The notes under the pieces are model-generated. The model ran no database searches and had not been told where the DNA came from. It saw only the letters and a list, made by a program, of their open reading frames with translations. A DNA stretch of 64,000 nt from an uncultured Clostridia bacterium. Lineage in GTDB: Bacteria > Bacillota > Clostridia > Christensenellales > Aristaeellaceae. Location: positions 7,915 through 71,914 of the forward strand of contig CAKUFI010000003.1 in assembly GCA_934647305.1 (NCBI GenBank), written 5' to 3'. A program made the position numbers and the translations under genes. Shown here piece after piece: positions 1-56,916 of the stretch. Positions within the stretch are counted from its first letter, which is position 1, and each line of letters starts with the position of its first letter.

Positions 1-915
1 CGTTTCAACGTTCAGGCCCGCCGCCGCGGGGGACTCAATCGGCGCGATGTCTGCGGGCGCATCCGCGGCCTCTTCCGCCTTTTCAGCTTCAGGCTGCTTA
101 TCCGCTGCCTCTTCCGCCTTTTCAGCTTCAGGCTGCTTATCCGCGGTCTCGTTCGCCTGTTCAGCTTCAGGCTGCGCGTCCGCGATCTCTTCGCCCTTTT
201 CAGGCTCCGTCGGCGTATCCGGGAGCTCCTCCGCCGCTTCAGGCTGCGCGCCCGGGAGCTCCTCGCCCTTTTCCGGCTCATAGGGCATTTCTTCGTACTC
301 GTCGAAGTCCTCTTCCTCAATCGAGTCCTCCCTGCGCAGCCGGGACGCGAGCTTCTTCGAGCCGGACTTGAACTTCGCGCCCAGCGCAGAGAGCAGACCG
401 CCCGCCTTCGCCAGGTTTTCCTTCATCGCCTGTGCGAAATCAGGCCCGGCCTCCTCCTCGCCTTCGTCCTCATCCTCGCCGGCTTCTTTATATGCCTCGT
501 CGTAGGCCTCGTCATATGACTCGTTATACGCCTCATCATACGACTCTTTGTACGCTTCCTCGTACGCCTCGTCCGCGGGCGCCTCTTCCGGCTGATCCGG
601 TGCGTCGATGCGCTTTTCCTCAGCCGGTTCCGCCGCAGACTCCGCAGCCGCCTCTTTCGGCGTGCCCGTTTCCTCCTTCGGCGCCTCCTGTTGGGGGATT
701 TCCGGCTTGCGGGGTGCCTTTTCCTGGGCAATCGCTTCCGCCCGGGCCTTCGGCGCTTCCTTTTGCGCGTCCGGCTCCTCGCCCATGCGCGCGGTCACCG
801 TTGCGCTGGTCGTCTTGCTGCGACGCTGCTGATCCTCCGCCCGTTCATACTGCCGTTCCAGTTTTTCCAGGAACTGGCCGCATTCGCGCTCTACATCCTT
901 TGCGTTGCGTGCCAT
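1..915 (-). CDS. Acidic low-complexity/tandem-repeat protein, C-terminus beyond window edge (N-term MARNAKDVERECGQFLEKLERQYER...; repeats AEKAEEAADKQPE and YDEAY)
   Basis: Manual translation of minus frame (codons 3k+1..3k+3) is open from nt 936 down to nt 1 with no stop. It is absent from the ORF track only because it runs off the edge. ATG at 913-915 preceded by GAGGTG SD; alternative ATG at 934-936. E/A/K/P-rich repeats, and 38-nt direct DNA repeats at 60-160. No recognised family. Confidence 0.5.
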   Translation of the reverse strand, partial: MARNAKDVERECGQFLEKLERQYERAEDQQRRSKTTSATVTARMGEEPDAQKEAPKARAEAIAQEKAPRKPEIPQQEAPKEETGTPKEAAAESAAEPAEEKRIDAPDQPEEAPADEAYEEAYKESYDEAYNESYDEAYDEAYKEAGEDEDEGEEEAGPDFAQAMKENLAKAGGLLSALGAKFKSGSKKLASRLRREDSIEEEDFDEYEEMPYEPEKGEELPGAQPEAAEELPDTPTEPEKGEEIADAQPEAEQANETADKQPEAEKAEEAADKQPEAEKAEEAADAPADIAPIESPAAAGLNVET

Positions 916-1009: not shown

Positions 1010-1037
1010 ATTATACCACACCGCGGGTAAATATCAA
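1010..1037 (-). promoter_or_regulatory. Sigma-A type promoter for the acidic-protein gene (minus strand: TTGATA -35, 16-nt spacer, TGgTATAAT extended -10)
   Basis: Reverse complement of 1010-1037 reads TTGATAtttacccgcggtgtggTATAAT, about 75 nt upstream of the ATG at 915. Confidence 0.4.
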
Positions 1038-1194
1038 GTCATTTCGCAAAAAGTAGCGTAAATTTCCACCCCGCGCGCCCTTTCACCCTGTTTTCCCCGC
1101 CTCGCTGCCTCATTTGGCGCAAAAAAGACCCGGAGTAATCAGAAAATACATGGAGCGCGCCCTGTCCGCATAGAATCAATCGAGGTGATTTGAT

Positions 1195-1497
1195 ATGTCC
1201 GTTCATGCGCTCTTTCGTATGGCGCGCCGCCTGTATCCCGTCGAGCCGCAGGCCGCCGCCCCGTCCTTCTCGCCCGCCCCCGCGCCGGCGCCCCCGCCTT
1301 CGCCGTCCCCGATCGCGCCGCAGGTCTTTCGGCCCTCTCACGCGCTCTACTCCAGCATCACCGGCCGGCACGCGCAGCTTCAGAGGGCCCGGGCCGCCTG
1401 GCAGCCGCCGCAGCCCGCCCCGAGCGCACAGCCTGCCTCAAAAACGCCCGATACGGCCCCGAAAACGCCCGATTCCGTCCCGCTGGAAGCGACCTGA
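1195..1497 (+). CDS. Hypothetical proline-rich small protein (100 aa, PAPAPAPPPSPSP tract)
   Basis: ORF with GAGGTG SD 7 nt upstream of ATG. Low-complexity composition could equally be a GC-rich frame artefact. Lies directly upstream of the sigG homology breakpoint. Confidence 0.25.
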   Translation: MSVHALFRMARRLYPVEPQAAAPSFSPAPAPAPPPSPSPIAPQVFRPSHALYSSITGRHAQLQRARAAWQPPQPAPSAQPASKTPDTAPKTPDSVPLEAT

Positions 1498-1513
1498 AGC
1501 GACGCACGCGCCT

Positions 1514-2023
1514 TTTCGACAGCCGAACGCCATGCCAATGATCATCGGTGAAATCCGCCGCTACCTACGCGACAACAACCCGATCCGCGTCAGCCGCTCC
1601 CTGCGCGATCTGGCCTACAGAGCGCTGCGCACTCGCGAGGCGCTGACCAGCAGCCGCGGCCTGGAGCCGTCCATATCCGAGATCGCCCGGGCCATGGGCC
1701 AGGAGGAGGCCGACGTGGTGCTCGCGCTGGAGGCCATACAGGACCCGGTTTCGCTGTTCGAGCCGGTGTTTCAGGAGGGCGGCGACGCGGTCTGCGTGAT
1801 GGATCAGGTGCGCGACGCAAAGGTCAGCGAAAACGACTGGGTGCGCTCGCTGGCGCTGCGGCAGGCGCTCGAGCACCTGGACGCGCGCGAACGCGGTATC
1901 ATCGAACGCCGCTTCTTCGAGGGGCGCACGCAGATGGAGGTCGCCTCGGAGATCGGCATCTCGCAGGCGCAGGTCTCCCGCCTGGAAAAGGCCGCGCTCA
2001 AGCAGATGCGCCGTTACGTCTGA
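1514..2023 (+). pseudogene. sigG: RNA polymerase sporulation sigma factor SigG, 5'-truncated fragment (regions 2.4-3-4 only; about the N-terminal 95 aa, regions 1.2-2.3, absent)
   Basis: Translation (N)AMPMIIGEIRRYLRDNNPIRVSRSLRDLAYRAL...AIQDPVSLFEPV...FFEGRTQMEVASEIGISQAQVSRLEKAALKQMRRYV is near-identical to B. subtilis SigG (YAVPMIIGEIRRYLRDNNPIRVSRSLRDIAYKAL...ISQAQVSRLEKAAIKQM). Upstream residues in the same frame are P/R-rich and unrelated. An out-of-frame FST codon triplet at 1513-1521 is followed by 4 extra nt, suggesting a junction or indel. No region-2 sequence in any frame of 1190-1513. Confidence 0.8.
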
Positions 2024-2511: not shown

Positions 2512-3531
2512 TTATTCGCCGCGAACCGTGCGCAGCAGCTGTTCAAAGAGTATGCGGTGCGAGGCGTAGACCTGCTCGCAGGTATAGTGCGTGCCGGGCT
2601 CATCGACGACGCACTGGTTGCTCTCGAAGGTCGCGCTGACCGCGCCGCAGACGTGATGCAGCGCGCTGGTCAGGTTGAAGGAGGGCGGCGTCGCGCCCTG
2701 TTCCCTGCCCGGCAGGTCGCGCACGTGGAAGGCGAGGCCCTGCGCCCCGGCCACCTCGTTGCAGCGGATGGCGAGGCTTCTGAGTGCCTGCTGGCACTCG
2801 AGGGTGACGTAGTCGGGCTGCAGCAGGTCGTTGACCGAGTTGGAGCCGCCGTGCATCTGGATCACCCAGTCGGCCGCCTCCGCGTCGCACAGGTCGAGCA
2901 GCGCCTGCGTCTCGCGCGCCATCGGATGGAAGAAGTTGTCGTGCATCAGGTTCACGCCGTCGTCGTTGTAGTACCCGCCCAGGAAATCCACGTAGTCCCT
3001 GATCGGGTGCTGCTTTTTGCACTCCGGCCAGCCGCACAGGCTGCCGTCCTTCCAGGTTCCCTGCATCCAGTACCGCAGCTCGTACCCAGTGCAGCCGATC
3101 ATCGAGGCGGGCTGAACGCGCGCGCGGCCGTCCGCGTTGCAGACCGGCACGATCACCAGCCGCACGCCCTCCGCCGCCTCGACCAGCGAGGGATACGCGT
3201 CGCCGCGCAGGTCCTTTCCGGTTTCCATGAGCGAAATCAGGTTGACCAGCGCGGCCGTGCCCTCGGTTTCGCCGCCGTGTACCGCGCCCAGCAGCGCCAC
3301 GACCGGCTTTTTGCCCTCTACAGGCGCATAGCAACTCTTATCGTGCGCGCCGCAGGCCGAGCTGTAGTTAGCGCGGCGGGTGAATTCCTGTTTCCCGCCA
3401 TAGGCAAAGGCCCAGACGTCGCGGCCGCCGGCGCTTTTGCACAGGCTCCAGGTCTGCGCGCGGCGGGCCTTTTTCGCCCAGGATTCGATGGTTTCAAGGT
3501 CTGTCTTCCAGAAGGCGGGGGCGTTCTGCAT
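2512..3531 (-). CDS. Zinc peptidase-like protein, M14 / succinylglutamate desuccinylase-aspartoacylase (AstE/AspA)-like family
   Basis: HxxE zinc motif in LLGAVHGGETEG. AAGGAGG SD 9 nt upstream of ATG. Last gene of the SBP-permease-permease operon. Confidence 0.5.
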   Translation of the reverse strand: MQNAPAFWKTDLETIESWAKKARRAQTWSLCKSAGGRDVWAFAYGGKQEFTRRANYSSACGAHDKSCYAPVEGKKPVVALLGAVHGGETEGTAALVNLISLMETGKDLRGDAYPSLVEAAEGVRLVIVPVCNADGRARVQPASMIGCTGYELRYWMQGTWKDGSLCGWPECKKQHPIRDYVDFLGGYYNDDGVNLMHDNFFHPMARETQALLDLCDAEAADWVIQMHGGSNSVNDLLQPDYVTLECQQALRSLAIRCNEVAGAQGLAFHVRDLPGREQGATPPSFNLTSALHHVCGAVSATFESNQCVVDEPGTHYTCEQVYASHRILFEQLLRTVRGE

Positions 3532-3570
3532 GGGGATATACCTCCTTTGTTTGTGACCGGGCGCGGGACG

Positions 3571-4458
3571 CTAGCCCTTGATCGCGCCGAGCATGACGCC
3601 CTTGACGAAGAAGCGCTGCAGGAAGGGATAAATGCACAGCACGGGAATCGTGGAGGCGATGATGGTCGCGTACTTGACGGCCTCGGAATAGGCCGAGAAG
3701 TTGTCGTAGCCCGAGGTTTCGGTGTCCAGGTTGGAGGTGCCCGAGATCAGGATCTCGCGCAGGATGACCTGCAGGGGGAACAGCTGGCGGTCGCGCAGGT
3801 AGATGGTGGCGGGGATGTAGCTGTTCCAGTTGGCGACGATGATGTACAGCGCGATGACCGCGATGACCGGCAGAGCCAGCGGAATCATGATCTTGATGAG
3901 GATGACCCAGTCGTTCGCGCCGTCGATGCGGGCGGACTCCTCCAGGCTGGCCGGGATGCCTCTGAAGTAGGTCATCATCATGATGATGTTGTAGGTGCTC
4001 AGGAGGCCCGGCAGGATCATCGCCCAGCGGGTGTTCACCAGCCCCAGAGTGACCACGACCAGGTAGGTGGGAATCAGGCCGCCGCCGAAGAACATCGTGA
4101 TGGTGATCATGGTCAGAAACACGTTCTTGCCGGGCATGTAGCTGCGGGAGAGCACGTAGCTGGCCATGATGGTCAGGGACAGGCCCAGCACGGTGGACGC
4201 GCCCACGTAGATCAGCGTGTTGCCGTAGCTCATCCACAGCATGGCGTGCTGCAGGATCAGCTTATAGGCATCCAGCGAGAAGCCGCGCGGCCACAGCAGC
4301 AGCTTGCTGCCGTTATACAGCGCCACCGGGTCGCTGACCGAGGCCATGACCACGTACCAGCAGGGGTACAGCGTGGCGACGGTAATCAGGATGAGCAGCG
4401 CATAGACAATCACGTCGAAGACGCGGTCGCTCCAGGTTTTCGATTCAATCATTGCCAT
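3571..4458 (-). CDS. Carbohydrate ABC transporter permease (LplC/AraQ-like)
   Basis: 6-TM permease with EAA-type loop (SARIDGANDWVILIKIMIPLALP). GAGGAGGGG SD. Confidence 0.85.
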   Translation of the reverse strand: MAMIESKTWSDRVFDVIVYALLILITVATLYPCWYVVMASVSDPVALYNGSKLLLWPRGFSLDAYKLILQHAMLWMSYGNTLIYVGASTVLGLSLTIMASYVLSRSYMPGKNVFLTMITITMFFGGGLIPTYLVVVTLGLVNTRWAMILPGLLSTYNIIMMMTYFRGIPASLEESARIDGANDWVILIKIMIPLALPVIAVIALYIIVANWNSYIPATIYLRDRQLFPLQVILREILISGTSNLDTETSGYDNFSAYSEAVKYATIIASTIPVLCIYPFLQRFFVKGVMLGAIKG

Positions 4459-5461: not shown

Positions 5462-5815
5462 GGGAACGTTCGAGAGGCGGCTTTCCTGACCGGGCAGTGC
5501 CCGGCCCCACTTGCTGCCGCGGATTCTATTGACGACTTCGGGAGCCATAGATTGAAGCCCCCGAAGTCTGTGAATTCCCGGAAAGCTCGATAGGATGCAG
5601 CTCTCTCGACCGGGCAGTGCCCGGCCCCACTTGCTGCCGCGGATTCTATTGACGACTTCGGGAGCCATAGATTGAAGCCCCCGAAGTCTGTGAATTCCCG
5701 GTAAGCTCGATAGGATGCAGCTCTCTCGACCGGGCAGTGCCCGGCCCCACTTGCTGCCGCGTATCCTATTGACGACTTCAGGGGGCATAAATTGAAGCCC
5801 CCGAAGTCTGTGAAT
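5462..5815. repeat. Tandem array of three 120-bp units (family A core ...CCGGGCAGTGCCCGGCCCCACTTGCTGCCGC... plus GACTTCGGG-loop-CCCGAAGTC hairpin)
   Basis: Sequence lines 5501-5560 and 5621-5680 are identical; third copy has 3-4 substitutions. The 112-aa track ORF here is a translation artefact of the array. Confidence 0.85.
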
Positions 5816-10014: not shown

Positions 10015-12060
10015 TCAGAGCCTGGCCGCGGTCGCGGTTTCGGGGGCGACGGTCACCTCGATCATCTGGCCATCGTCTGCGGTGATGCGGGTAGTCTGGG
10101 CCTGGTCGGTGTAATTCCACAGAGTGAAGCCCAGTTCGTTTTTCGCATTGCGCCAGCCCTTGACCAGCACGCAGGGGTTGGAGGCGGTGAAGCCGTCGGT
10201 ATCGACAAAGCGACCCTCGTGCACGAACTCGGCGTACTCGGTGGAGACGGCGTTGAGCTGCTTGAGGTAGGCGGCGTAGCTGGGGATGTCCTTAAGGGAA
10301 CCGCAGCAGCGCCAGATGGTCATGTCGAAGCGCAGGCCGAGCAGGAAGGAGTAGCCGGCGTAAGCACGGTAATGATTCTCGTCCTCGCCGCACTCGCGGT
10401 TGGTCATGACCAGCTCGGGGAAGGTGTAGCGGTACATCTCGCGCAGGGTCGAGTCCTGCTTCCACGCGTCGGGATTCTCCTTATAGGAAGCGGGATCCAT
10501 ATAGCGCCGTTCCGGATGGGTGGCGTGGCCCTGAGCGACGTCCATGCTCATGCCGTAGATATCGACGTTGTGCTCCATCAGGATGACCTTGTCCTCGCCG
10601 TAGCTCCTGACCACCCTGCGCAGCTCGGCGAACAGGCGCGCCTTGCTTTCATTGGCCTGAGAAGGCTTTTTATGGGTGTGGTTCTTGGCGTAGCAGAAGA
10701 AGGGCTCCAGGCCGCCCAGGTCGTAGAGCACGCCGTCCGCGCCCATCTCCATGCACTGCCGGGCCGCCCAGATCATCTTTTTCTGCCACAGCTCGCTGCC
10801 CGGGCAGGCGCGGTACATGGGCATGGGCGGGTTGCCGATCTTGCGGTAGGTGCCCTCGCCGCAGTAGGTTTCGGCAAAGGGAATGTCCAGACCCCAGATC
10901 GACTTCATGGTCGCCTCGGCGCCACCCTCCTTGAGGTAGAAGTCGCTGCGGTAGTCGATCAGCGAGTAGCTCAGGAACATGAGCACCCTGCCGCCCTTTT
11001 TGTGCACGTACTCGATGCCCTCGCGCAGCTTTCCCTCGCCGCCCATGCGGTCATCGACGATATAGTCGGGCCACATCCGGGCAAAGCCGCCCTTTTCCCA
11101 GCCCAGCAGGAACAGCGTGTTAAAGCCGTTTTCCTCCAGCTCGTCGTACAGCGCGGGGATCTGGCTATAGTCCCAGTTGATTTCACAGTGGTGCTGCTTC
11201 ATGATGACGCGCAGCCAGCCCTTGAAATCCTGGCACCACTTGGGGCGGTCGGGCGCGATAAAGCCGCCCTTTTCGTCCATCCAGGCGCGGTACATCTTCG
11301 CGCCGGCGTGCCAGTCGCCCAGGTGGGGCCTGAACACCAGCGGCGCGCCCGTCCAGCACTCGCCTTTTTCCAGCATTGGATAGCGGATGAAGCCCATCCT
11401 CAGCAGGTTGAGCTTCACGTCGCGCTCGACGTGCAGGCACAGCGCCTGATGATCCGCGTCCTCGGATGCGCAGTACAGGCCCTCTCCTTCATTATACCAG
11501 TCGTACCACTGCATCGAGCAGCGGCCGTAGAGCGCGTCCATGTCGGTGTGGAACTGGTCGTGCCGCTCGTACTTGCGGAAGCCCGCGTAGGTGGACAGGT
11601 CGTTATAGGCGGGATTTTTGACCTTTTTGCCCAGGTCGTCCGGCCAGGCGATGTAGTCGTTTTCCGGCGTGCCGGACAGCGAGCGCATGCCGGCCGCGGG
11701 GGTCAGCTGCAGCTCGATCAGCTTGGCCTGGTCGTCATGATTTTCGGCCTCGGCCACGACAGTCAGACCCTCGTCGGTCATCGCAAAATGCAGCCTGAGC
11801 AGGAAATTCACCCGGCGGCCGTCGCCCTGCAGCGAGTCGTAAGTCAGGGTGAAGCCGTTTTCCTCGTCGGTGCGGGTAAAGGCCTGGCCCTGCGCCCAGA
11901 TCGGGATCTCGACGCGCTCGGTGCCCTCGGAATAGATGATCTTCCAGATTTCCGCCGGTTCATAGACGTATTCGTGGCAGGTCAGCCGGTTATAGACCGA
12001 GACCACCTGGCCGTGCTCATTGATCGCGTAGCGCATGGTTTTGCCCTGCAGTGTCTTCAT
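10015..12060 (-). CDS. Large uncharacterised putative glycoside hydrolase (DUF6259-like, TIM-barrel type), paralog 1
   Basis: 681 aa, no signal peptide, AAGGAGG SD. Shares blocks with 24131..25996 (YP.LEKGE, NT...GWxxGG, GG.V..Y..). Confidence 0.55.
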   Translation of the reverse strand: MKTLQGKTMRYAINEHGQVVSVYNRLTCHEYVYEPAEIWKIIYSEGTERVEIPIWAQGQAFTRTDEENGFTLTYDSLQGDGRRVNFLLRLHFAMTDEGLTVVAEAENHDDQAKLIELQLTPAAGMRSLSGTPENDYIAWPDDLGKKVKNPAYNDLSTYAGFRKYERHDQFHTDMDALYGRCSMQWYDWYNEGEGLYCASEDADHQALCLHVERDVKLNLLRMGFIRYPMLEKGECWTGAPLVFRPHLGDWHAGAKMYRAWMDEKGGFIAPDRPKWCQDFKGWLRVIMKQHHCEINWDYSQIPALYDELEENGFNTLFLLGWEKGGFARMWPDYIVDDRMGGEGKLREGIEYVHKKGGRVLMFLSYSLIDYRSDFYLKEGGAEATMKSIWGLDIPFAETYCGEGTYRKIGNPPMPMYRACPGSELWQKKMIWAARQCMEMGADGVLYDLGGLEPFFCYAKNHTHKKPSQANESKARLFAELRRVVRSYGEDKVILMEHNVDIYGMSMDVAQGHATHPERRYMDPASYKENPDAWKQDSTLREMYRYTFPELVMTNRECGEDENHYRAYAGYSFLLGLRFDMTIWRCCGSLKDIPSYAAYLKQLNAVSTEYAEFVHEGRFVDTDGFTASNPCVLVKGWRNAKNELGFTLWNYTDQAQTTRITADDGQMIEVTVAPETATAARL

Positions 12061-15587: not shown

Positions 15588-15650
15588 GGCTACGCTGGGG
15601 AGGCCGCCTTTTTGACCGGGCAGTGCCCGGACCCACTTGCTGCCGCCAAT
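15588..15650. repeat. Family A repeat unit (GGGGAGGCCGCCTTTTTGACCGGGCAGTGCCCGGACCCACTTGCTGCCGCC) immediately after the stop codon
   Basis: Near-identical copy at 47176-47240 after the yfcE-like gene. Confidence 0.6.
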
Positions 15651-15808
15651 CCACTCGACACGCGGTTCATTGGCGCGGCATACGAGGCCGCATGGCTCTT
15701 TGCCTCTCCCCAAACCCCTCACGAAAAGCACTATGATCCACGAAATGGAAAAGATAAGAGAAATGTGGGTCTCCGAATGAAATGTTGGAGTAACGGAGGA
15801 TTGAAAGC

Positions 15809-18835: not shown

Positions 18836-19612
18836 GCAGCCGGCAGGCTGAGCCTGCACCCACTTGCTCCCGCCGATTCTGGCGACGAATTCGGGAACCA
18901 TAAATTGGAGTCCCCGAATTCTGCGGATTTCCAGAAAATTTCTGGAAATCATAAGTCGGCGTTGCCGACTCAGCTTGTCAAAAAAGGTTTTGACAAGCTG
19001 GTGGACGGGGAAGCAAGCTCCCCCGCCACTGCCACCCTCACCAGTCTCCGCTAAAAATCAAAGATTTTTCGGGCGCGGAGCCTGCAGGGAAACGATTTTT
19101 TCTCTGGAAAATGGGATTTTCCGGCGCAAAAATCGCCCCGTGCCCACCGTACACGCCGCTGGGCACGATTGAAAGTTCGAAAGGGCTGCGGCCCTCTCGA
19201 GCTCTCCGGGGGTTTTTTGACAGTCTGAGTCGGCGTTGCCGACAGCCACCTGCTGCCGCGCATCCTCTCGACGACCCTGAGGGCCATAAATGAAGCCCTC
19301 AGGGTCTCTGAATTCCCGAAATTCTCCGAGAATTTCCCGCGGCAGGCAGTGCCTGCACCCACTTGCTGCCGCCGGTTCTGGCGACGAAATTGGGAACCAT
19401 AGATTGGAGTTCCCAATTTCTCCGGTTTTCCGGAATTCTCCGAAAAACTCCCGTCGGCGTTGCCAGCTCGGGCAGTGCAAATATACAGCGTGGGCATGGG
19501 GCGATTTTTGTAAATCACATTTTCCAGAGAAAAAACGTTTCTTGCTTCCCCAGCTGCCAGCTTGTTAAAACTTTTTTAACAAACATACCGGCGCCCTCCG
19601 CTGTGGAGAGCG
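18836..19612. repeat. ~780-bp mosaic repeat island: two family A units (18836-18925, 19330-19420), family D palindromes GTCGGCGTTGCCGAC, and an embedded family E element
   Basis: Multiple hairpin modules shared with islands at 33286-33830, 49900-50235, 58262-58870. Track ORFs inside (19051..19518 etc.) judged artefacts. Confidence 0.8.
18954..19243. mobile_element. MITE-like family E element (~290 bp) bounded by ~20-bp terminal inverted repeats AGTCGGCGTTGCCGACTCAG / CTGAGTCGGCGTTGCCGAC; contains a 13-bp-stem palindrome CAGCTTGTCAAAA-N4-TTTTGACAAGCTG
   Basis: A ~260-bp near-identical copy lies in inverted orientation at 58310-58570. Non-coding; no transposase in window. Confidence 0.45.
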
Positions 19613-33285: not shown

Positions 33286-33830
33286 GTGAAATCCAGAGAT
33301 TTAAGAGGCAGCCCTTCCGGTCGGCAGGGCCGACAGCCACCTGCTGCCGCCGGGTCGGCAGGGCCGACAGCCACCTGCTGCCGCGGGGTCGGCAGGGCCG
33401 ACAGCCACCTGCTTCCGCCGAAGCCAAGACGAATCCTTCGGCCATAAATTGAAGCCTCAGGATTCTTCGTTTGGAGAGAATCAGATGCAGTACCCCGCAA
33501 GAGCTGCGGCAGGCTGAGCCTGCACCCACTTGCTGCCGCGGGTTCTGGCGACGAATTCGGGAACCATAAATTAGAATTCCCGAATTCTCCGAATCCACGA
33601 AATCCTTCGTGGATTGACGGTCGGGCAGGCTGAGCCTGCACCCACTGGCTGCCGCCGGACAGCACACGAAATTGGGAACCATAGATTAGAGTCCCCAATT
33701 TCTCCGTTTTTCCGGAATTCTCCGAAAAACTCCTGTCGGCATTGCCGACTCGGGCAATGGCGCGGGGAGCGTGCTTCCCCGATCACCAGCTTGCCAAACC
33801 CCTTTTGACAAGCTGAGGCGGCCTTTCGGA
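33286..33830. repeat. Mosaic repeat island: 3 tandem 33-bp units GGTCGGCAGGGCCGACAGCCACCTGCTGCCGCC (33322-33420), two family A units (33500-33590, 33615-33710), partial family E end (33735-33830)
   Basis: Direct sequence comparison with the 18836-19612 and 58262-58870 islands. Confidence 0.8.
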
Positions 33831-47171: not shown

Positions 47172-47380
47172 CGGGGGGCTACGTTGGGGAGGCCGCCTTT
47201 TTGACCGGGCAGTGCCCGGACCCACTTGCTGCCGCCGGATAACTGAAAGGTTGTCTTGCGTCAAAGCCTGCTGCGGACAGCCAACCCTCAGCCCCTCTCG
47301 AGCTCTCCCGAAAAGTACTATGATCTTCAAAACATATTTTCAGAAAGAAATGTGATTCCCCGAATGCAGCGCAGGAGGGG
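47172..47380. repeat. Family A unit followed by family B-tail (…CCCCTCTCGAGCTCTCCCGAAAAGTACTATGATC…CCCCGAATGCAGCGCAGGAGG) immediately 3' of the yfcE-like stop
   Basis: Sequence comparison with 15588-15650, 37328-37450 and 60705-61085. Confidence 0.7.
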
Positions 47381-49899: not shown

Positions 49900-50235
49900 T
49901 CCCCTTTCAGGAGAGCCTCATGCCGGCGCGGAGCGGACGGAGATGTTCACAAACGCAGAATTCGGGAACTCCAATTGATGGTTCCCGAATTCATCGCCAG
50001 AATCCGCGGCAGCAAGTGTGTGGGCAACGCCCACCAGACAAACTTCGGTGGGGGTCTGGGGGAGCGCGAAGCGAAGCGGAGCCTCCCCCAGCGGGAGACG
50101 CTGCAATGCGGAACCACGCAGACCTTGGCCGCTTCAATCTATGGCGGCCAATGGTCGTCGCCAGAATCCGCGGCAGCAAGGGGCCGTCGGCCCTGCCGAC
50201 CGGCAGCACCGCCTCCAGGCTCAGCCTGGTAGATG
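49900..50235. repeat. Repeat island with two inverted-orientation family A units and a GTCGGCAGGGCCGAC palindrome; overlapped by the methyltransferase 3' end
   Basis: GAATTCGGGAACTCCAATTGATGGTTCCCGAATTC and GGCAGCAAGTG(T/G)G elements are reverse complements of family A modules. Confidence 0.7.
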
Positions 50236-50966
50236 CGGAGGTATTCGGCGGTGGGCGCGCCGTCGTCCGACTGGAGAATGAGCGGGGGCAGCCAGTGCAG
50301 CATCGAGCCGCCGCCCTTGATCGCCTCCACGAGCACCAGCTTGGGCGCGTCGCCCGCGCGGTGGTGGACGGTGCGCACTCGCTTGGGCTCGAGGCGGGCG
50401 TTTCGCATGGCGCACATCAGCTCCAGCATGCGCGGCGCTGGAAACACGACCGCAAACCGCCCGCCCGTTCGCAGCAGCCGAAAGGCGGAAAGGCACACGT
50501 CCTCAATGGTGCAGTCGCCCTCATGCCGCGCAATGCGCTCGGTTTCGCGCTCGCTGCGCAGCGTGCCGCCCGCCTTGCCGTAGGGCGGGTTGCAGACGGC
50601 CAGCGTGTATTTTTCACAGCCCAGGACGCGATGCGCCTGCCTGAAGTCCTCGCAGAGCACCGAAATCTGGTCCTCAAGGCCGTTGAGAAGCACGCTGCGA
50701 GCGGCTATATCAGCCATATCGGGCTGGATTTCCACCGCGGTGCAGCGGACATTTACCTGATGAGAGACGGCCAGCAGCGCGATCACGCCGGTGCCCGTAC
50801 CCAGGTCGACCATCTGCTCGCGGGGCCTGGGCTGCGCAAAGTCGGCCAGCAGCACCGCGTCGGTGCCATAATGAAAGGCCTTTTTCTTTTGCAGGATGAC
50901 GAGCGAGGGGCCATTCAGCTCCTCCAGCCGCTCGCCCTCCCGGATCAAAGCAGTCTGAATCCCCAT
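50139..50966 (-). CDS. Class I SAM-dependent N6-adenine-type methyltransferase (tRNA m6A37 TrmN6/YfiC-like or RsmD-like); C-terminal ~30 aa encoded by repeat DNA
   Basis: DLGTGTGVIAL SAM motif and NPPY catalytic motif. Start overlaps the P60 gene end by 22 nt. Confidence 0.55.
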   Translation of the reverse strand: MGIQTALIREGERLEELNGPSLVILQKKKAFHYGTDAVLLADFAQPRPREQMVDLGTGTGVIALLAVSHQVNVRCTAVEIQPDMADIAARSVLLNGLEDQISVLCEDFRQAHRVLGCEKYTLAVCNPPYGKAGGTLRSERETERIARHEGDCTIEDVCLSAFRLLRTGGRFAVVFPAPRMLELMCAMRNARLEPKRVRTVHHRAGDAPKLVLVEAIKGGGSMLHWLPPLILQSDDGAPTAEYLRIYQAEPGGGAAGRQGRRPLAAADSGDDHWPP

Positions 50967-53803
50967 GAGAAGTTACCATACGTCGAGAACCGGCTGATGA
51001 CCACCTGGCCGCGCACCGACGAGCAGTGGATAAACTGGTCGTCGCCCAGATAGATGCCCGCGTGGTCGCTCAGGTCGTCGTCGGTCTTGACCGTGTCGAA
51101 GATCAGCAGGTCGCCGCGCTCCAGCTTCTTCGGGTCGGTGATCTTGGGGTAAACCGTCATGTAGCCCTGCACGATCACGCGCCCGGAGATCTTCACACCC
51201 ACCTTGCCGTAGCAGTACTTGGTGTAGTTGGAGCAGTCGAAGGTGTCCGGCCCGCCCGAGTTGAGCACGTACCTGCAGCCCAGCTTGCTCTCGGCCACGG
51301 CGATCAGCTTCTCGATCTTCTCGGCGCGGGTGACCGCCTCGCGCTCCTCCAGCTCTCGCTGCACCTTGTCCTGATACTCCTTGAGCGTCAGGGCGTTTTT
51401 ATCGTTCATGGCGGCCCGGGTGGTCTTGTCGGCCGCGCCGGACTCAGTGAGCGCATGCGCCTTCTGGAACAGCCTGACCGCCGTCTCCAGCTCCGCGCCG
51501 TAGCTGCCGTCCAGCTTGCCGGTATAATAGCCCAGCGCGTTCAGGCGAACCTGTACCTGCCGCACCGCCTCGCCCTTGTCGCCCTTTTTGACCGCGCAGG
51601 TGCGATAGTACTCGGACAGGCTGATTCCCCCGCCCGCGTTAAGCAGCTTGCGCATGTCGGCCGTGATGTTCTTTTCGACGGTCAGGTCGTTCGCCTGGGC
51701 AAAGAGCCTGGCCGCGCGCAGCAGCGTCTCGCCGAAGCTGCCGTCCAGCGCGCCCGAATAGTAGCCCAGGTTGAGCAGCTGCCGCTGCACCGCGCGCACC
51801 GCCGCGCCCTTTTCGCCGTATTTGATCGGGCAGTAGGTCAGGTAGAGATCGTAGGACACCGCGTCGCTCGAGAAAATCTGAAGCCGGGTCTCCACGTCCG
51901 CCTTGCCGGTCACGGGAAGCGAATGCGCCGTCTGGAACAGCTTCACCGACGTGACCAGCGCGTTGTCAAAGGTGATGTTCACCTCGCCGGTATAGTAGCC
52001 CAGCACCTTGAGCCGGGTCTTGAGCAGGCGCACCGTGGTGGTCTTTTCGCCCTTGGAAATGACGCGCCTTGCGTCGTAGGCGGCGCGGGTGACCGCGTCG
52101 GGCGCGTTCATCTTCTTGCGGGTGTCGGTGTCGGCCTTGCCGGTGACGCGCAGGGATGCGGCGGTCTGGTAGGCCTTGACCGCGGTTTTTGTGTTCGCGT
52201 CGTAGCTGCCGGTCACGTCCCAGGCATAGAAGCCCAGCTGGATCAGGCGGGTCTGAAGCAGCTTGACCGCCTCGCCCTTACTGCCGGACTTGAGCGGGCA
52301 GAAGGTATCGTACTGCGCCCGGGTCACGCCGTTTCCTGCGTTGAGCAGCTTGCGGGTGGGCGCGTCGGCCTTGCCGGTTTTGCTCAGACTGTTGGCCATC
52401 TGGAAATCGCTCGCCGCCTGCGAGGTCGTCCTGTCGAAGCGGCCGGTGACCTCGCCGGTATAGTAGCCCAGGTCCTTCAGCTGGCGCTGCACCTGGCTGG
52501 CCGCGTCGCCCCTGTCGCCCACCGAAACCGGGCGAATCAGGTCGTATTCGGCCCTCGTGACCGCCTGCGCGCCGTTCATGACCTGCCGCGTGGACGCGTC
52601 GGCCGTGCCGGTGGCCTTGAGCGCGTTGGCCTGCTGAAAGAGCGAGACCGCGCTCTTGAGCGCCTTGTCATAGGTGCAGTCGATCGTGCCGGCGAAGTAT
52701 CCAAGGGCCGTCAGGCGCGCCTTGAGCACCCTCACCGCCGCGCTGGACGCGCCCGGCCGGAGCGCGAGCGCCTGATAATAGGCCGAGGAGTCCTTCGCCT
52801 GCTCGCCGTTCATCAGTGCGCGGGTCGCGCTGTCGGCTCTTCCGGTGGCCTTCAGCCCGTTGGCCGACTGGAACTCGGAAACCGCCGTGCGGGTTGCCTT
52901 GTCGTAGGACTCGGTCATCGTGCCGGCGAAGTAGCCCAGCTCGGCCAGCCGCGCCTTGAGCAGCTTCACCGCCGCGTTCTTCTCGCCGTACTTGAGCGGA
53001 CACACCTTGTCGTATTCTGAGGCGGGCAGCGCGTCCTGCGCGTTCATCCGCTTTCTGGTCGCCGCGTCAGCCTTTCCCGTGGCCTTCAGGCCGTGCGCCG
53101 TCTGAAAGCGCTTCACAGCCGCCTTGACCGCCGCTCCATATTTGCCGTCCGCCTCGCCGGTATAGTAGCCCAGCGCCCTGAGCCTCGTCTGCAGAAGCCG
53201 CACGGCCTCGCCCCTGCTGCCCGAGGACAGCGCGCAAAACGTCTGATACTCGGCAAAGGTCACGGCCGTCTCGCCGTTCATGAGTTTTCGGGTATTGCTG
53301 TCGGCGCTGCCGGTCGCCTTCAGGCCGTTCGCGGTCTGAAACGCCTTAACCGCCGACTTGACCGCGCTGGCGTACCTGCCGTCGACCTTGCCGTCATAGT
53401 AGCCCAGTGCGCTCAGGCGCTCCTGAAGCCGCTTCACGGCCTCGCCCTTACTGCCTGAGGACAGCGGGCAGAACTCGTCATACTGGCTCCTGGTGACCGC
53501 CAGCTCGCCGAAGAGCAGCTGCTGCTCCTCCCCGGTCAGCGAGCCGGTCTGCCGCAGGCCGTTGCCCGCCTGAAACAGCTTTGCCGCCGCGCGGGTCGCC
53601 GAGTCGAAGGTTTCGCTGGCCTTTCCATCGTAGTAGCCCAGCTCGGTCAGGCGGCGCTGCGCGGAAAGCACATCGTCCCCGCGCATGCCCATCTTGAGCG
53701 TTCTCGCCCCCTCGGCCCAGGCGGCGCCCAGGCACAGAGCCAGAAGCACCGCCGTCAGGCAGATCAGACCTTTCAGAAGCGAATGAGCAGAACGCGTCTT
53801 CAT
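50945..53803 (-). CDS. Secreted NlpC/P60 (C40) peptidase with ~12 tandem peptidoglycan-binding (PG_binding_1-like) repeats
   Basis: Signal peptide MKTRSAHSLLKGLICLTAVLLALCLGAAWA. Repeats of consensus LQxRLxxLGYYxGxxDGxYxxxxxxAVKxFQxANGLKATGxAD. C-terminal DCSNYTKYCY...HAGIYLGDDQFIHCSS catalytic Cys/His. AAAGGAG SD before ATG 53803; the track ORF carries a 114-aa junk extension. Confidence 0.8.
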   Translation of the reverse strand: MKTRSAHSLLKGLICLTAVLLALCLGAAWAEGARTLKMGMRGDDVLSAQRRLTELGYYDGKASETFDSATRAAAKLFQAGNGLRQTGSLTGEEQQLLFGELAVTRSQYDEFCPLSSGSKGEAVKRLQERLSALGYYDGKVDGRYASAVKSAVKAFQTANGLKATGSADSNTRKLMNGETAVTFAEYQTFCALSSGSRGEAVRLLQTRLRALGYYTGEADGKYGAAVKAAVKRFQTAHGLKATGKADAATRKRMNAQDALPASEYDKVCPLKYGEKNAAVKLLKARLAELGYFAGTMTESYDKATRTAVSEFQSANGLKATGRADSATRALMNGEQAKDSSAYYQALALRPGASSAAVRVLKARLTALGYFAGTIDCTYDKALKSAVSLFQQANALKATGTADASTRQVMNGAQAVTRAEYDLIRPVSVGDRGDAASQVQRQLKDLGYYTGEVTGRFDRTTSQAASDFQMANSLSKTGKADAPTRKLLNAGNGVTRAQYDTFCPLKSGSKGEAVKLLQTRLIQLGFYAWDVTGSYDANTKTAVKAYQTAASLRVTGKADTDTRKKMNAPDAVTRAAYDARRVISKGEKTTTVRLLKTRLKVLGYYTGEVNITFDNALVTSVKLFQTAHSLPVTGKADVETRLQIFSSDAVSYDLYLTYCPIKYGEKGAAVRAVQRQLLNLGYYSGALDGSFGETLLRAARLFAQANDLTVEKNITADMRKLLNAGGGISLSEYYRTCAVKKGDKGEAVRQVQVRLNALGYYTGKLDGSYGAELETAVRLFQKAHALTESGAADKTTRAAMNDKNALTLKEYQDKVQRELEEREAVTRAEKIEKLIAVAESKLGCRYVLNSGGPDTFDCSNYTKYCYGKVGVKISGRVIVQGYMTVYPKITDPKKLERGDLLIFDTVKTDDDLSDHAGIYLGDDQFIHCSSVRGQVVISRFSTYGNFSWGFRLL

Positions 53804-53832
53804 CTCAATCTTCTCCTTTGTATCCGGTACGG

Positions 53833-56800
53833 TCAGCCGACCAGGTAGATTTTCTTCAGGTATCCCTCTTTGCCGTCCACGCGGACGCGATACCATTCTC
53901 CGCTCTCGCCGAGGATGGCGGCCTTGTCGCCATTCTGCACGTAGCCCAGTGACTCCGTATCGGTCGACGGGCCCTTTCTCAGGTGAAGCGTGCCGTCGTT
54001 TTCGATATGGATGGTGGCCTCGCGCTCGGGCGCCTGCGTGGGCGCGGCGGTGGGTGCGGGCGTGGCCTCGGGGGCCTGCGCGCCGCCGTCCAGGTAGATC
54101 TTCTTCAGGTATCCCTCTTTGCCGTCCACGCGGACGCGGTACCATTCGCCGCTCTCGCCGAGGATGGTGGCTTTGTCGCCATTCTGCACGTAGCCCAGCG
54201 ACTCCGTATCGGTGCCCGGGCCCTTTCTCAGGTGAAGTGCGCCGCCGTTTTCGATCTGAATGGTCGCCTCGCGGCCGGTTTCGGGGGTCTGGGTAGGCGA
54301 AGCGGTGGGCGCGGCGGTCGGGCTCACGTCGCCGGTCACGCGCACATACGCCTTGGACAGGTAGCCCAGCGTGCCGTTGTAGTTTACGTGATACCAGTTT
54401 CCGCTCTCACCCAGCACGGTCACCTTCGTCCCGCCCGAAAGCCGGGTCAGGATCTTCGACGAGGTGCTGGCCTTTTCGCGAAGGTTCAGCCGCGAGCCGC
54501 TGATGTTCACCACGCCGGTTCGGCCGGTCTCGGGCGCCTGCGTCGGGGCGGCGGTGGGCTGGGAGGTGGGCGCGGCGGTCGGGGCAGTCGTTGGCGCGGC
54601 CGTCGGGGTCTCCTCGGTCACGCGCACATAGTCCCTGGACAGGTAGCCCAGCGTGCCGTTGTAGTTTACGTGATACCAGTTTCCGCTCTCGCCCAGCACC
54701 GTCACCTTCGTTCCGCCCGAAAGCCGCGCCAAAATCTTCGACGAGGTGCTGGCCTTCTGACGCAGGTTCAGCCTCGAGCCGCTGATATTCACCACGCCGC
54801 CTCGCCCGGTCTCCGGGGTCTGCGTGGGCTCGGGCGTGGGTTCAGGCGCGGGGGTCGCGGTCGCCTGCGCGCCGAAGATCAGCTTCTGCAGCTCGGGCGT
54901 GGCGACGCCGTCCGGGTTCAGGCCGTTTGCCCGCTGGAAGGCCTGCACCGCCTCCTGGGTCTTGGCCAGGTAGTTGCCGCCGATCTCGCCGTCGAAGTAG
55001 CCCAGCTCCTTCAGCCTGCGCTGAAGCGCCTTGACCGCCTCGCCGCTGCTGCCGTAGGACAGCGTCTCGCCGTCGGGCGCGGGCGTTTCGGAGGGCGCGG
55101 GGGTGGCCGTCGCCTCGATCATCTTGAGGTAGGTGGTCATCACATAGCCCTCGAGCGATTCGGTGCGGATCTGCGACCAGCTGCCGCTCGCGCCCAGCAC
55201 CTCGACCTGCGTGCCGTGGGTCACCCGGCCGACGATCTTATGGCCGGTGCCCGGCCCCTTGCGCACGTTCAGCCGCACGCCGCTATTGGGCATCTGGATG
55301 AGCGCCAGCGGGTACTGCGGCGCGGGGGTGGGCGTCGGCTGCTCGCCGCCCTGGGCCTCCTGCGCGATGCGCTTTTGCAGCTCGGGGGTGGCCACGCCGT
55401 CCGCCGTCAGGCCGCGCGCAGTCTGATAGGCCTTGACCGCCTGCTCGGTCAGCGTCAGATAGTTGCCGCCGATGCTGCCCTCGAAGAAGCCCAGGGCCTG
55501 CAGGTTGCGCTGCAGCTCCTTAACCGCCTCGCCGCTGCTGCCGTAGGACAGCGTCTCTTCAGGGTCGGTGTCGCCGCCGATGACCTCGCCGCCCGCGCCA
55601 TACAGGCTCTCGCCCAGCGAACGCGTGGCTACCGTCGTGCCCGGATAATAGAAGGAAAGGATGTCCCTGTAGCTCTTGCCGTACGCGCTGGCCATCTGCT
55701 GCGCGCCGCGCTGGCTCATGCCCACGCCGTGCCCGAATCGCCGGAAGCTCAGCGTAAAGGCCGCGCCGCTCTCCTCGACCGAAACAATCTCGTTGCTGGA
55801 GCTGTTGATCGACAGGCCCAGCATGTCCTCCACCCCGCCGAAGGTGGCCAGGTTCACGGTCGCCTGAGCGGTTTTGCTGCCGTCGGTCGCGGTCAGAGTA
55901 AAGCGGAGCTTCGTATAGACCCGGCTGGGGGCAGCGTACTTGGGCGTGTGCGGCGTCACCTCGGAAATCCCGGTGATTTTGCGCCCGGAGGACTTCAGGC
56001 CAGCCGAGGTGAGCTGCGAATCGGCCGCGTCCAGCAGCGCCTGAGAAAGCGCCGCGCTCACGCTGCCGTTTTTCGGAATCAGCGCGCTCTTAACCCGGCT
56101 GCCGGGGTTTTCCAGGTCGTACGGGTCGTCCTTGACCACCAGATACGACGCCGAGCCGCCCCAGATGTTGGCGGTGCTCTCGGTCTGGCCGCCGTTGCTG
56201 GCGGTGTAGAAGCACTGGGCGTACGCGCCCGAGCCGGTGGTCAGGCACACGCCGCGCGTGCCGTCCACGGCGCTGATGACGTTTTTCTGGCTGGAGGAAT
56301 AGCCGTAGAATACCTGGCTGTTCGTGTTGTCGGTCACGTCGTAGCTGCCCGAGGATTTCTTCGCGCGCAGGGCATAGGTACGCGCGGCGATCGCCTGGGT
56401 CTTGAGCGCCTCAATCGGGTAGCTGTTGGACATTTCGTAGCCCACCACGCCGTAAAGGTAGGTCTCGATGTACATCCTCGCCACCGTCTGGATGCCGCCG
56501 TTGACCGAGAAGATCAGGTCGGCGTGGAAGGTGTTGGACTTTGAGGGCGAGGTGAATTTCACGCTGCTCGACAGGCCGCCCGACAGGCGGTTAAGCGCGA
56601 TCTGCGAGCCGCTGGTCACCGTCTGGCCGTTGACCGACAGCGTCAGGCCCGAGCCGCTCTGCGCGACCGTCACCGTCGAGCCGCTGGCGATCGTCTTGCC
56701 CGCGCAGGCATAGCCGCCGCTGGTCTTAAGGGTGATGCTTGACAGGCCGCTGCCCAGCTTGGTCAGCTTGACGCGGATCATGCCGTCCCCGGCCGCCTGC

Positions 56801-56916
56801 GCGGCCGGCGCGGGCAGGATTGTCAGCAGCAGCAGTGCCGCCATCAGGCAGCAGAGCAGGCGCATCGGCCAGGTTTTTCGCCTCTCGTGGGGTTTCTTGT
56901 GCGTTCGGTTGTTCAC
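53833..56916 (-). CDS. Secreted SpoIID/LytB-domain protein with two PG-binding repeats and five SH3b-like repeats separated by Pro/Thr/Ala linkers
   Basis: GTG start with GAAGGAGG SD. Basic n-region + hydrophobic signal peptide. SpoIID block YPIEALKTQAIAARTYALR. SH3b repeats VNISGSRLNLRQKASTSSKILARLSGGTKVTVLGESGNWYHVNYNGTLGYLS. Confidence 0.8.
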   Translation of the reverse strand: MNNRTHKKPHERRKTWPMRLLCCLMAALLLLTILPAPAAQAAGDGMIRVKLTKLGSGLSSITLKTSGGYACAGKTIASGSTVTVAQSGSGLTLSVNGQTVTSGSQIALNRLSGGLSSSVKFTSPSKSNTFHADLIFSVNGGIQTVARMYIETYLYGVVGYEMSNSYPIEALKTQAIAARTYALRAKKSSGSYDVTDNTNSQVFYGYSSSQKNVISAVDGTRGVCLTTGSGAYAQCFYTASNGGQTESTANIWGGSASYLVVKDDPYDLENPGSRVKSALIPKNGSVSAALSQALLDAADSQLTSAGLKSSGRKITGISEVTPHTPKYAAPSRVYTKLRFTLTATDGSKTAQATVNLATFGGVEDMLGLSINSSSNEIVSVEESGAAFTLSFRRFGHGVGMSQRGAQQMASAYGKSYRDILSFYYPGTTVATRSLGESLYGAGGEVIGGDTDPEETLSYGSSGEAVKELQRNLQALGFFEGSIGGNYLTLTEQAVKAYQTARGLTADGVATPELQKRIAQEAQGGEQPTPTPAPQYPLALIQMPNSGVRLNVRKGPGTGHKIVGRVTHGTQVEVLGASGSWSQIRTESLEGYVMTTYLKMIEATATPAPSETPAPDGETLSYGSSGEAVKALQRRLKELGYFDGEIGGNYLAKTQEAVQAFQRANGLNPDGVATPELQKLIFGAQATATPAPEPTPEPTQTPETGRGGVVNISGSRLNLRQKASTSSKILARLSGGTKVTVLGESGNWYHVNYNGTLGYLSRDYVRVTEETPTAAPTTAPTAAPTSQPTAAPTQAPETGRTGVVNISGSRLNLREKASTSSKILTRLSGGTKVTVLGESGNWYHVNYNGTLGYLSKAYVRVTGDVSPTAAPTASPTQTPETGREATIQIENGGALHLRKGPGTDTESLGYVQNGDKATILGESGEWYRVRVDGKEGYLKKIYLDGGAQAPEATPAPTAAPTQAPEREATIHIENDGTLHLRKGPSTDTESLGYVQNGDKAAILGESGEWYRVRVDGKEGYLKKIYLVG

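Follow-up and report, generated by a model that had tools for sequence, protein, structure and literature searches.

How does a genome come to hold a sporulation sigma factor gene that lacks its front part, and can such a gene still be of use? This question is raised by the window, the whole stretch of 64 kb (~63% GC) analyzed here from contig CAKUFI010000003.1 of an uncultured Clostridia bacterium, in which sigG begins in the middle of the sigma factor. An earlier, sequence-only reading of this DNA had proposed a gene split by a recombinase, a decayed duplicate or an assembly chimera. We consider it probable that positions 1514-2023 comprise the right attachment site (attR) of a mobile element of the large serine recombinase (LSR) type, followed by the distal half of a still-functional sigG that the element has split. 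The features on which this interpretation depends are as follows.

1514-1560, plus strand: predicted attR of a large serine recombinase; the motif stands at the same distance in 12 loci of different lineages
1514-1521, plus strand: P arm TTTCGACA, the element-derived arm of attR
1522-1530, plus strand: 9-nt attR spacer between P arm and core
1531-1536, plus strand: core CATGCC, with the predicted crossover CC at 1535-1536
within attR, plus strand: B' arm AATGATCATCGGTGAAATCC..., equal to the sigG codons for PMIIGEI
1532-2023, plus strand: 3' half of sigG, 163 codons and a stop codon, with regions 2.4, 3 and 4 (from tblastn, NCBIfam, Pfam and the ratio of nonsynonymous to synonymous divergence, dN/dS)

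The sigG fragment and its junction

The truncation of sigG in the window is real and not an assembly artefact. A tblastn search with a B. subtilis SigG sequence gave a sole match in the 64 kb, at 1529-2020 in frame +2, which corresponds to SigG residues 95-258 with 60% identity (E=2e-64), the back two-thirds of the gene. The N-terminal 94 residues had no match in any frame of the window, and region-2 homology, even with a frameshift allowed, was absent from all frames of the window and of the 9.5 kb further left that are covered by a contig bearing the same protein (L001; handles beginning with L denote loci and those with P proteins). This confirms the 5' truncation that had been noticed from the sequence, and does away with the idea of a sequencing frameshift that hides region 2. 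The resemblance to B. subtilis SigG had been called almost identity, which is true of the first ~28 residues and not of the remainder. The 163-aa product, read from the ATG at 1532, covers positions 92-254 of the 254-position SigG model in NCBIfam with 250 bits, against 180 for SigF and at most 44 for SigK and SigE, so that SigG is the best family; the score lies below the cut-offs for full-length SigG (372 bits for NF006071 and 457 for TIGR02850). Pfam detects Sigma70_r3 and Sigma70_r4 only, with Sigma70_r2 absent. The ATG at 1532 comes from the element arm, and the native methionine of ...VPMII... is at 1538.

At least four independently assembled contigs (ENA ERZ27287505 and Logan ERR7739005; L001 and L002) encode the exact 163-aa protein with the same neighbours; they reach at most 9.5 kb to the left. 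Since the junction is the same in independent assemblies, a chimera or a contig break at ~1510, both envisaged in the sequence-only reading, is excluded. In Firmicutes, sigG is usually located downstream of spoIIGA-sigE. The window fragment does not occupy this place, and no sigE was found in the window.

Inspection of the DNA preceding ATGATYATYGG in 12 aligned loci revealed invariant TTTC-GACA at -24 to -17 and CAT(G/C)CC at -7 to -2, both of which are present in the window. Here the site takes the form TTTCGACA-N9-CATGCC, and 11 further lineages have this arm at an equal distance, most of them with an orthologous recombinase gene directly upstream. Over 1514-1560 the window agrees with the family attR at all conserved positions, as a hybrid of element and host half-sites. 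Intact sigG genes have a motif of their own, TTYTCNAC, 3-4 bp closer than the P-arm motif. In L012, a locus with both halves of the gene, attL consists of ...TTTTCTACCTATGCCGTGCCGATG followed by GATATTACATGTCGAAAAC, and attR of CATTTCGACAAACAGCGTCCATGCCGATG followed by ATTATTGGAGAAAT; the P' arm TGTCGAAA is seen at this attL. From the two sites together one obtains an attP in the form of an inverted repeat, TTTCGACA-N28-TGTCGAAA, whose centre is the CC of the Pro codon. The related motifs of attB lie 3-4 bp nearer the centre than in attP, and both the P/P' inverted repeat and the shift are found in L012 and in L058. The A118 integrase serves as structural model for serine-integrase sites, in which the outer (ZD) motif lies ~5 bp further inward in attB than in attP (PMC3783163; for the site architecture see also PMC12286644). 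Because the geometry of the junction matches such sites, we interpret the out-of-frame FST triplet with 4 extra nucleotides, previously taken for a breakpoint with a small indel, as the P arm of attR, with no indel. The triplets themselves (TTT-TCG-ACA at 1513-1521) are real, and their spacing to CCAATG is 4 nt greater than in the intact gene, with the recognition motif 3-4 bp farther from the crossover than in the host half-site. The arm beside the 3' end of the recombinase gene is identical (TTTTCGACATGTAATATC) in the attR of L004 and the attL of L012, therefore both orientations of the element occur. The exact attP and attR patterns had no matches in IMG/VR.

Split sigG genes in other lineages

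Comparison of the fragment with 5.8 billion proteins showed that ~40 of the best 120 matches are 3' fragments of 161-180 aa starting with MPMIIGEI or MIIGEI. Of the 15 nearest matches (78-99% identity), every one is truncated save a single assembly-duplicated oddity, and truncated and full-length forms interleave, as in truncated P0046, which is ~92% identical to full-length P0019. The complementary halves were retrieved with a profile of SigG N-termini: more than 100 proteins are N-terminal only, many of them exactly 99 aa long and ending in ...RFSTYAVPM+NI at the stop codon, while others read through as AVPM-xxx-CR(K/N), that is, ATG-N9-TGTCGAAA. Some of these fragments lie on contigs longer than 100 kb. 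Two unusual SigG entries, both probably assembly artefacts, are P0008 (267 aa), with an internal duplication of residues ~95-170, and P0205 (142 aa), in which the N-terminal half is fused to a SecY-like C-terminus.

At five loci (L003, L004, L014, L015 and L017) the 3' half is directly preceded, on its own strand, by the gene for an LSR of 450-465 aa. These recombinases contain Resolvase, Recombinase and Zn_ribbon_recom domains and are 45-65% identical to each other; L014 is from a cultured isolate, Butyricicoccus sp. Marseille-Q5471. L012 and L058 also encode orthologous LSRs, as do over 60 loci of metagenomic or viral origin. Their best NCBIfam similarity is to XisF/CcrB, below the cut-off; the best full-length match, XisF, gives 123-152 bits over positions 4-464 of 465 and does not reach the cut-off of 375. 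Searching with an alignment of six recombinases yielded 80 metagenome and 79 IMG/VR loci, in which the LSR has a SigG-type 3' half as a neighbour at 43 loci and a 5' half at 20; the recombinase may adjoin either half. The SigG score exceeds the SigF score at nearly all LSR-adjacent halves. Several of the loci are on contigs classed as viral, some with phage-like cargo beside the LSR, and the recorded sources include human gut, rumen and fermentation metagenomes.

Both halves are present on one contig at three loci, where we rejoined them in silico at the shared CCNATG:

L012: element of 4417 bp; rejoined open reading frame (ORF) of 257 aa
L058: element of 2669 bp; rejoined ORF of 258 aa
L087: element of 7654 bp; rejoined ORF of 255 aa

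At 415-450 bits, the rejoined ORFs pass the cut-off of the SigG equivalog NF006071 (372 bits). A bona fide sigE (SigE equivalog, 394 bits; cut-off 339) stands immediately before the 5' half in L058, which indicates that the split copy is the canonical sigG. The L058 element contains a gene for a BMC-domain protein, a 70-aa ORF (2492-2704) that overlaps the LSR start, the LSR gene (2704-4080) and nothing else. Elements of the family range from prophages to 2.7-kb mini-elements, and the mini-elements of 2.7-4.4 kb carry no phage genes; their cargo includes the BMC-domain microcompartment shell protein (L058 1543-2337) and a family-2 glycosyltransferase (L012 13624-14661).

For the 25 loci where the LSR gene is followed by a complete 3' half, we compared pairs at synonymous divergence (dS) of 0.5-1.2. 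The 3' half has dN/dS of 0.02-0.16 and the LSR 0.05-0.20, with matching dS for the two (0.65/0.69 for L015-L017 and 0.88/0.89 for L099-L100). The matching dS and the low dN/dS of both genes argue that the LSR and the split gene are co-inherited and that both are maintained. As judged from these comparisons, one family of LSR elements splits sigG in many gut Clostridia at the very base at which the gene in the window is cut. A second lineage without an LSR (L008-L011, GCA_029782595.1) has a 161-aa sigG 3' fragment located 43 nt after an ABC-transporter operon, at what is possibly a fossil junction.

Selection on the fragment and competing explanations

The junction of the window recurs in L016 (the Hadza gut metagenome-assembled genome (MAG) CAKUFB01, 91% identity), L019 (93%), L022 (85%) and L028 (85%). 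The unit common to this clade consists of an acidic protein gene, a small ORF, the P arm and the 3' half; most members also have PQQ-like and FGGY genes farther left. The surrounding features in the window are:

1-914, minus strand: 5' part (304 codons) of an acidic repeat-protein gene of 661 aa, the conserved left neighbour of the junction
1010-1037, minus strand: sigma-70-type promoter of the acidic gene, TTGATA-16-TGnTATAAT, with 11 of 12 consensus matches
1166-1187, plus strand: conserved CCGCATAGAAT (-10-like CATAnnnT), then the Shine-Dalgarno (SD) sequence GAGGTG; kept in five clade members, the sequence upstream of it not
1195-1497, plus strand: orphan proline-rich small ORF of 100 aa, with blocks MSVHALFRMA and FRPSHALYSSITGRHxQLQR and a good SD, GAGGTG
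2024-2511, no strand: gene-free 488 bp from the sigG stop codon to a convergent M14 peptidase gene; from here the right flank diverges between clade members

Values of dS on the two sides of the junction are:

Window and L028: FGGY 0.53; PQQ-like 0.47; sigG fragment 0.61; DUF6259 0.48
Window and L019: PQQ-like 0.31; sigG fragment 0.26; M14 peptidase 0.19

Since dS is similar on both sides, the junction appears to be ancestral to the clade, which has at least five lineages. The dN/dS of the fragment is about 0.09-0.21 at dS 0.26-0.82, and 0.13-0.15 where it was compared with neighbour genes. This is among the lowest in the neighbourhood, undercut only by an ABC permease (0.08) and, in a single comparison, by the PQQ-like gene (0.10). 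Constraint is strongest in the 30 codons beside the junction (region 2.4-3.0, dN/dS 0.04-0.09). The ORF is intact with the same stop codon in all five lineages, with no frameshift or premature stop codon, and is not a pseudogene by these measures. Four lineages have an intact P-arm motif, and the fifth differs from it by one change.

Neither the ATG at 1532 nor that at 1538 is preceded by an SD sequence. In three relatives the sigma frame is closed 57-99 nt before the fragment, on which ground we rejected a fusion of the small ORF to the sigma frame. The gap from the small-ORF stop codon to the fragment is 35-93 nt. In L028 an ATG overlaps the small-ORF stop codon and would give a 175-aa product; this start is the result of one substitution and is not conserved. 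The low dN/dS, the missing SD, the closed frame and the retained P arm favour use of the fragment within a whole sigG over a pseudogene and over independent translation.

We therefore propose that the LSR of the element has its attB within the sigG codons for ...FSTYAVPMIIGEI..., where sigma region 2.3/2.4 ends, with the crossover in the Pro codon. The fragment would be expressed only once site-specific recombination had brought it together with a 5' half at a distance of more than 10 kb. The enzyme would be an LSR whose gene, alone or together with that of a directionality factor, lies elsewhere in the intervening DNA. Such rejoining of sigG is an inference for the window genome. The 5' half would end in ...TAYGCNGTNCCNATG, followed by N9-TGTCGAAA; the rejoined attB would have this half joined to ...GCCAATGATCATCGGTGAAATCC, and attP would have TTTCGACAGCCGAACGCCATGCC joined to the P' arm.

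SigG is the late sigma factor of the forespore, and the forespore is the germ line (PMC4191935). Because of this, we suggest, more speculatively, that the rearrangement is likely to be reversible; a terminal deletion, as for the skin element in sigK, would lose the element. The spore might retain the excised circle, which the default attP x attB reaction would insert again, or there might be inversion instead of excision. It is possible, though rather doubtful, that sigG in many gut and rumen Clostridia is controlled by a domesticated LSR switch in the germ line, which would be excised or inverted in the forespore to assemble sigG, persist during dormancy and return to its first state at germination, by re-integration or a second inversion. 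The clade of the window would then be a variant with the LSR far from attR and with the orphan small protein as directionality factor.

Several observations weigh against a split, functional sigG in the window. Neither an LSR nor a 5' half was found in the 64 kb, in the 9.5 kb further left to which L001 extends the leftward search that the sequence-only reading had called for, or within 10 kb on either side in L028. A search for LSR remnants in positions 1-1540 gave noise only (E >=0.85). The window has no LSR at an element edge, and of the target gene only the 3' half is seen in the 64 kb and the additional 9.5 kb. To the left of attR the DNA is not phage-like and looks ordinary and chromosomal (FGGY kinase, PQQ-like propeller), with host-like GC and conserved synteny in the clade. 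To the right of the fragment, by contrast, the clade lineages differ, and comparison of the window with L028 shows the FGGY-to-3'-half block in opposite orientation with respect to a DUF6259/499-aa gene pair. Fossil junctions exist, as indicated by the degenerate P arm of L008 (TTTTCACG), and constraint on the P arm in the clade is only suggestive, with 2 of 14 positions variable in the motif and 5 of 9 in the spacer (p=0.066). Finally, excision in the forespore would cure the spore of the element unless it is reversible. A cluster look-up gave no accession tying 5' fragments to the MAG, and there was no synteny with the nearest intact sigG (P0033/L027). Two candidate 5' halves were rejected: P0177 is a plain frameshifted sigG, and P0222 represents attL of a different, low-GC element from another sample. 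The FGGY gene near the 5' half of L012 was likewise dismissed as an orthologue of the clade FGGY gene, being 25% identical.

The absence of an LSR and a 5' half within ~74 kb would also be expected if both had been lost and the fragment had become a stand-alone gene, with regions 2.4-4 kept and co-transcribed with the proline-rich ORF. Its product could then form a two-part sigma factor of the SigO-RsoA type, or act as a competitor or decoy for sigma-F/G promoters or for core RNA polymerase. The left block does behave as vertically inherited chromosomal DNA, and the small ORF and the fragment are a conserved same-strand pair in all clade members, both under purifying selection; the overlapping ATG of L028 points the same way. 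We nevertheless regard this explanation, although a serious rival, as unlikely. No candidate start has an SD, the fragment is separated from the small-ORF stop codon by the gap given above, and the L028 start is confined to that locus. The small ORF has no detectable similarity to sigma region 2, and the predicted recombinase-binding motif of the P arm is intact in four of five lineages. Constraint moreover peaks in region 2.4, which in sigma factors packs against regions 2.1-2.3, and these are missing from the fragment.

A fragment whose 5' part is absent locally and which has no translation signals might instead be an inert relic, left when an element destroyed sigG in a lineage that no longer sporulates and decaying neutrally since. 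Some relatives in Christensenellales and Oscillospirales are described as non-sporulating, and L008 demonstrates that degenerate junctions occur. With an ORF that stays intact to the same stop codon in five lineages over dS 0.26-0.82, and with dN/dS that is among the lowest nearby, we give a relic little credence; for the decayed duplicate of the earlier proposal, dN/dS of 0.13-0.21 is likewise unfavourable. Only slightly better placed, and still improbable, is a series of recent, independent prophage insertions that knock out sigG and block sporulation in the lysogen, the 3' half looking conserved because it was intact until recently. The prophages among the family members (IMG/VR contigs, phage-like cargo beside the LSR) and the interleaving of truncated and full-length forms (P0046 and P0019) would agree with this. 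In the window clade, however, element-side genes, the fragment and flanking chromosomal genes share dS, which indicates an ancestral junction, and elsewhere the LSR and the 3' half co-diverge over dS 0.5-1.2 and mini-elements of 2.7-4.4 kb exist without phage genes. An assembly or sequencing artefact, whether chimera or frameshift, would explain why homology stops abruptly, but its probability is negligible given the identical junction in the independent ENA and Logan assemblies, the orthologous junctions in other samples and the lack of region-2 homology in any frame. Of the gene split by a recombinase, which the sequence-only reading had raised with reserve, the conserved attR, the orthologous recombinases in other lineages and the in-silico rejoining speak in favour, whereas a 5' half and a recombinase were not found at this locus.

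Known systems and neighbouring features

The skin element, which interrupts sigK and encodes the recombinase SpoIVCA, is known from B. subtilis, C. difficile and 12 further genomes; the element measures 2.6-48 kb, occurs in either orientation and has as its only shared gene the LSR at its edge, usually immediately upstream of the 3' fragment (bioRxiv 10.1101/2022.02.25.481979). The sigG family loci resemble skin in having a sporulation sigma gene in two in-frame halves, an LSR at the edge and variable cargo and orientation. They differ in the target, in the position of the split and in the LSR clade, and in the window itself the LSR is not adjacent. SigK acts in the terminally differentiated mother cell, where a deletion costs nothing.

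Precise reconstitution of genes by LSRs is also described for SPbeta in spsM (SprA-SprB), gin in gerE, vfbin in spoVFB and yin in yabG, with elements that range from an active prophage to tiny non-phage cassettes and with a small recombination directionality factor (RDF) that sets the direction (PMC5499854, PMC5595907, PMC10747680). Excision of SPbeta is specific to the mother cell (PMC4191935). These targets are all mother-cell genes, unlike sigG, which is a forespore gene, and the sigG elements have RDF candidates only. The closest precedent for a gene of the germ line is the active lysogeny of Listeria, in which excision of the comK prophage A118/phi10403S restores a regulatory gene while the element is kept and later re-integrates (PMC13492144); organism, gene and trigger differ, and for sigG such reversibility is presumed. 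The fdxN element of cyanobacterial heterocysts, with XisF, is alike in being developmentally excised by an LSR and unlike in acting in a terminally differentiated cell on an unrelated target. In B. subtilis, SigO and RsoA share a sigma function between two adjacent small genes. Each of these has translation signals and recognizable sigma regions, whereas the window fragment has no SD and the neighbouring ORF no similarity to sigma factors.

Literature searches, including phrase searches for interrupted or split sigG, returned no report, and sigG is not among the genes listed in a systematic survey of element-interrupted genes. A split of sigG by LSR elements thus appears to have no earlier description that we could find, although the layout is already known from skin-type elements. 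The programmed rearrangements that we found described (sigK, spsM, spoVFB, gerE, yabG) all take place in the mother cell, which dies, and this death is the accepted reason why such elements are tolerated and inherited. A widespread, selectively maintained split sigG would break the mother-cell rule and leave as options a reversible switch in the germ line, sporulation that is completed differently, or elements that gate sporulation at the population level. Annotation of gut MAGs and scoring of sporulation signatures will miscount such sigG genes as absent or as pseudogenes. The recombinase clade, with a well-defined attB of ~45 bp in a highly conserved gene, may be of interest to developers of integrase tools, and in Butyricicoccus sp. 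Marseille-Q5471 there is a cultured carrier with which the question can be put to a direct test.

The proline-rich small ORF, whose existence had been correctly called from the sequence along with its SD, holds the position that is taken by the recombinase gene in other lineages. It is lineage-restricted and kept in all clade members, its two blocks are separated by a variable Pro-rich linker, and its dN/dS is 0.23-0.38; only 4 representative clusters were found among 1.84 billion proteins. There was no match in Pfam, NCBIfam or PHROG and no similarity to ORFs of other elements. The 70-aa ORF of L058 and this 100-aa ORF have no sequence similarity to each other and are both RDF candidates; a role of the small ORF as RDF or partner protein is speculation. 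About 20 nt ahead of the start codon of the small ORF stands a conserved CCGCATAnnnT, with no conserved -35; this -10-like motif, similar to the sigE/sigK consensus, is at most a tentative promoter.

The acidic gene, which had likewise been recognized as divergent and strongly promoted, always stands divergent from the small ORF beside the sigG fragment. The full gene is contained in L001 (6909-8894), with orthologues in L019, L022 and L028. The protein is highly acidic and composed of E/A/P/K repeats, with 39/78-bp tandem DNA repeats at 56-280, and is fast-evolving (dN/dS 0.22-0.28). It has no Pfam or PHROGs family, and the L028 orthologue has no NCBIfam match either. In L028 a rearrangement breakpoint relative to the window is located at 10834-11825; a 331-aa gene called there after the fragment was rejected, as the region is an array of ~360-bp repeats.

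Elsewhere in the window, a dispersed intergenic repeat of ~120 bp is found at 5488-5815, 15592-15652, 19246-19435, 33512-33696, 47181-47240 and 49956-50197. It occurs as a tandem of 2.7 copies between ABC permease and binding-protein genes and as partial copies in other gaps, and it makes spurious ORFs. Rfam gave no match in the window, including at 3097-3193 (minus strand), where a tRNA-Thr of 97 nt, predicted by ARAGORN within the coding sequence of the M14 peptidase, is probably a false positive. Two very large wall-associated proteins are encoded at 50945-54145 and 53833-56916, both on the minus strand, with the called ORFs overlapping at 53833-54145. One contains 10 PG_binding_1 domains and NlpC/P60, the other SpoIID, 2 PG_binding_1 and 5 SH3_3 domains, and their genes carry long internal DNA repeats at 53082-53510 and 54333-54863.

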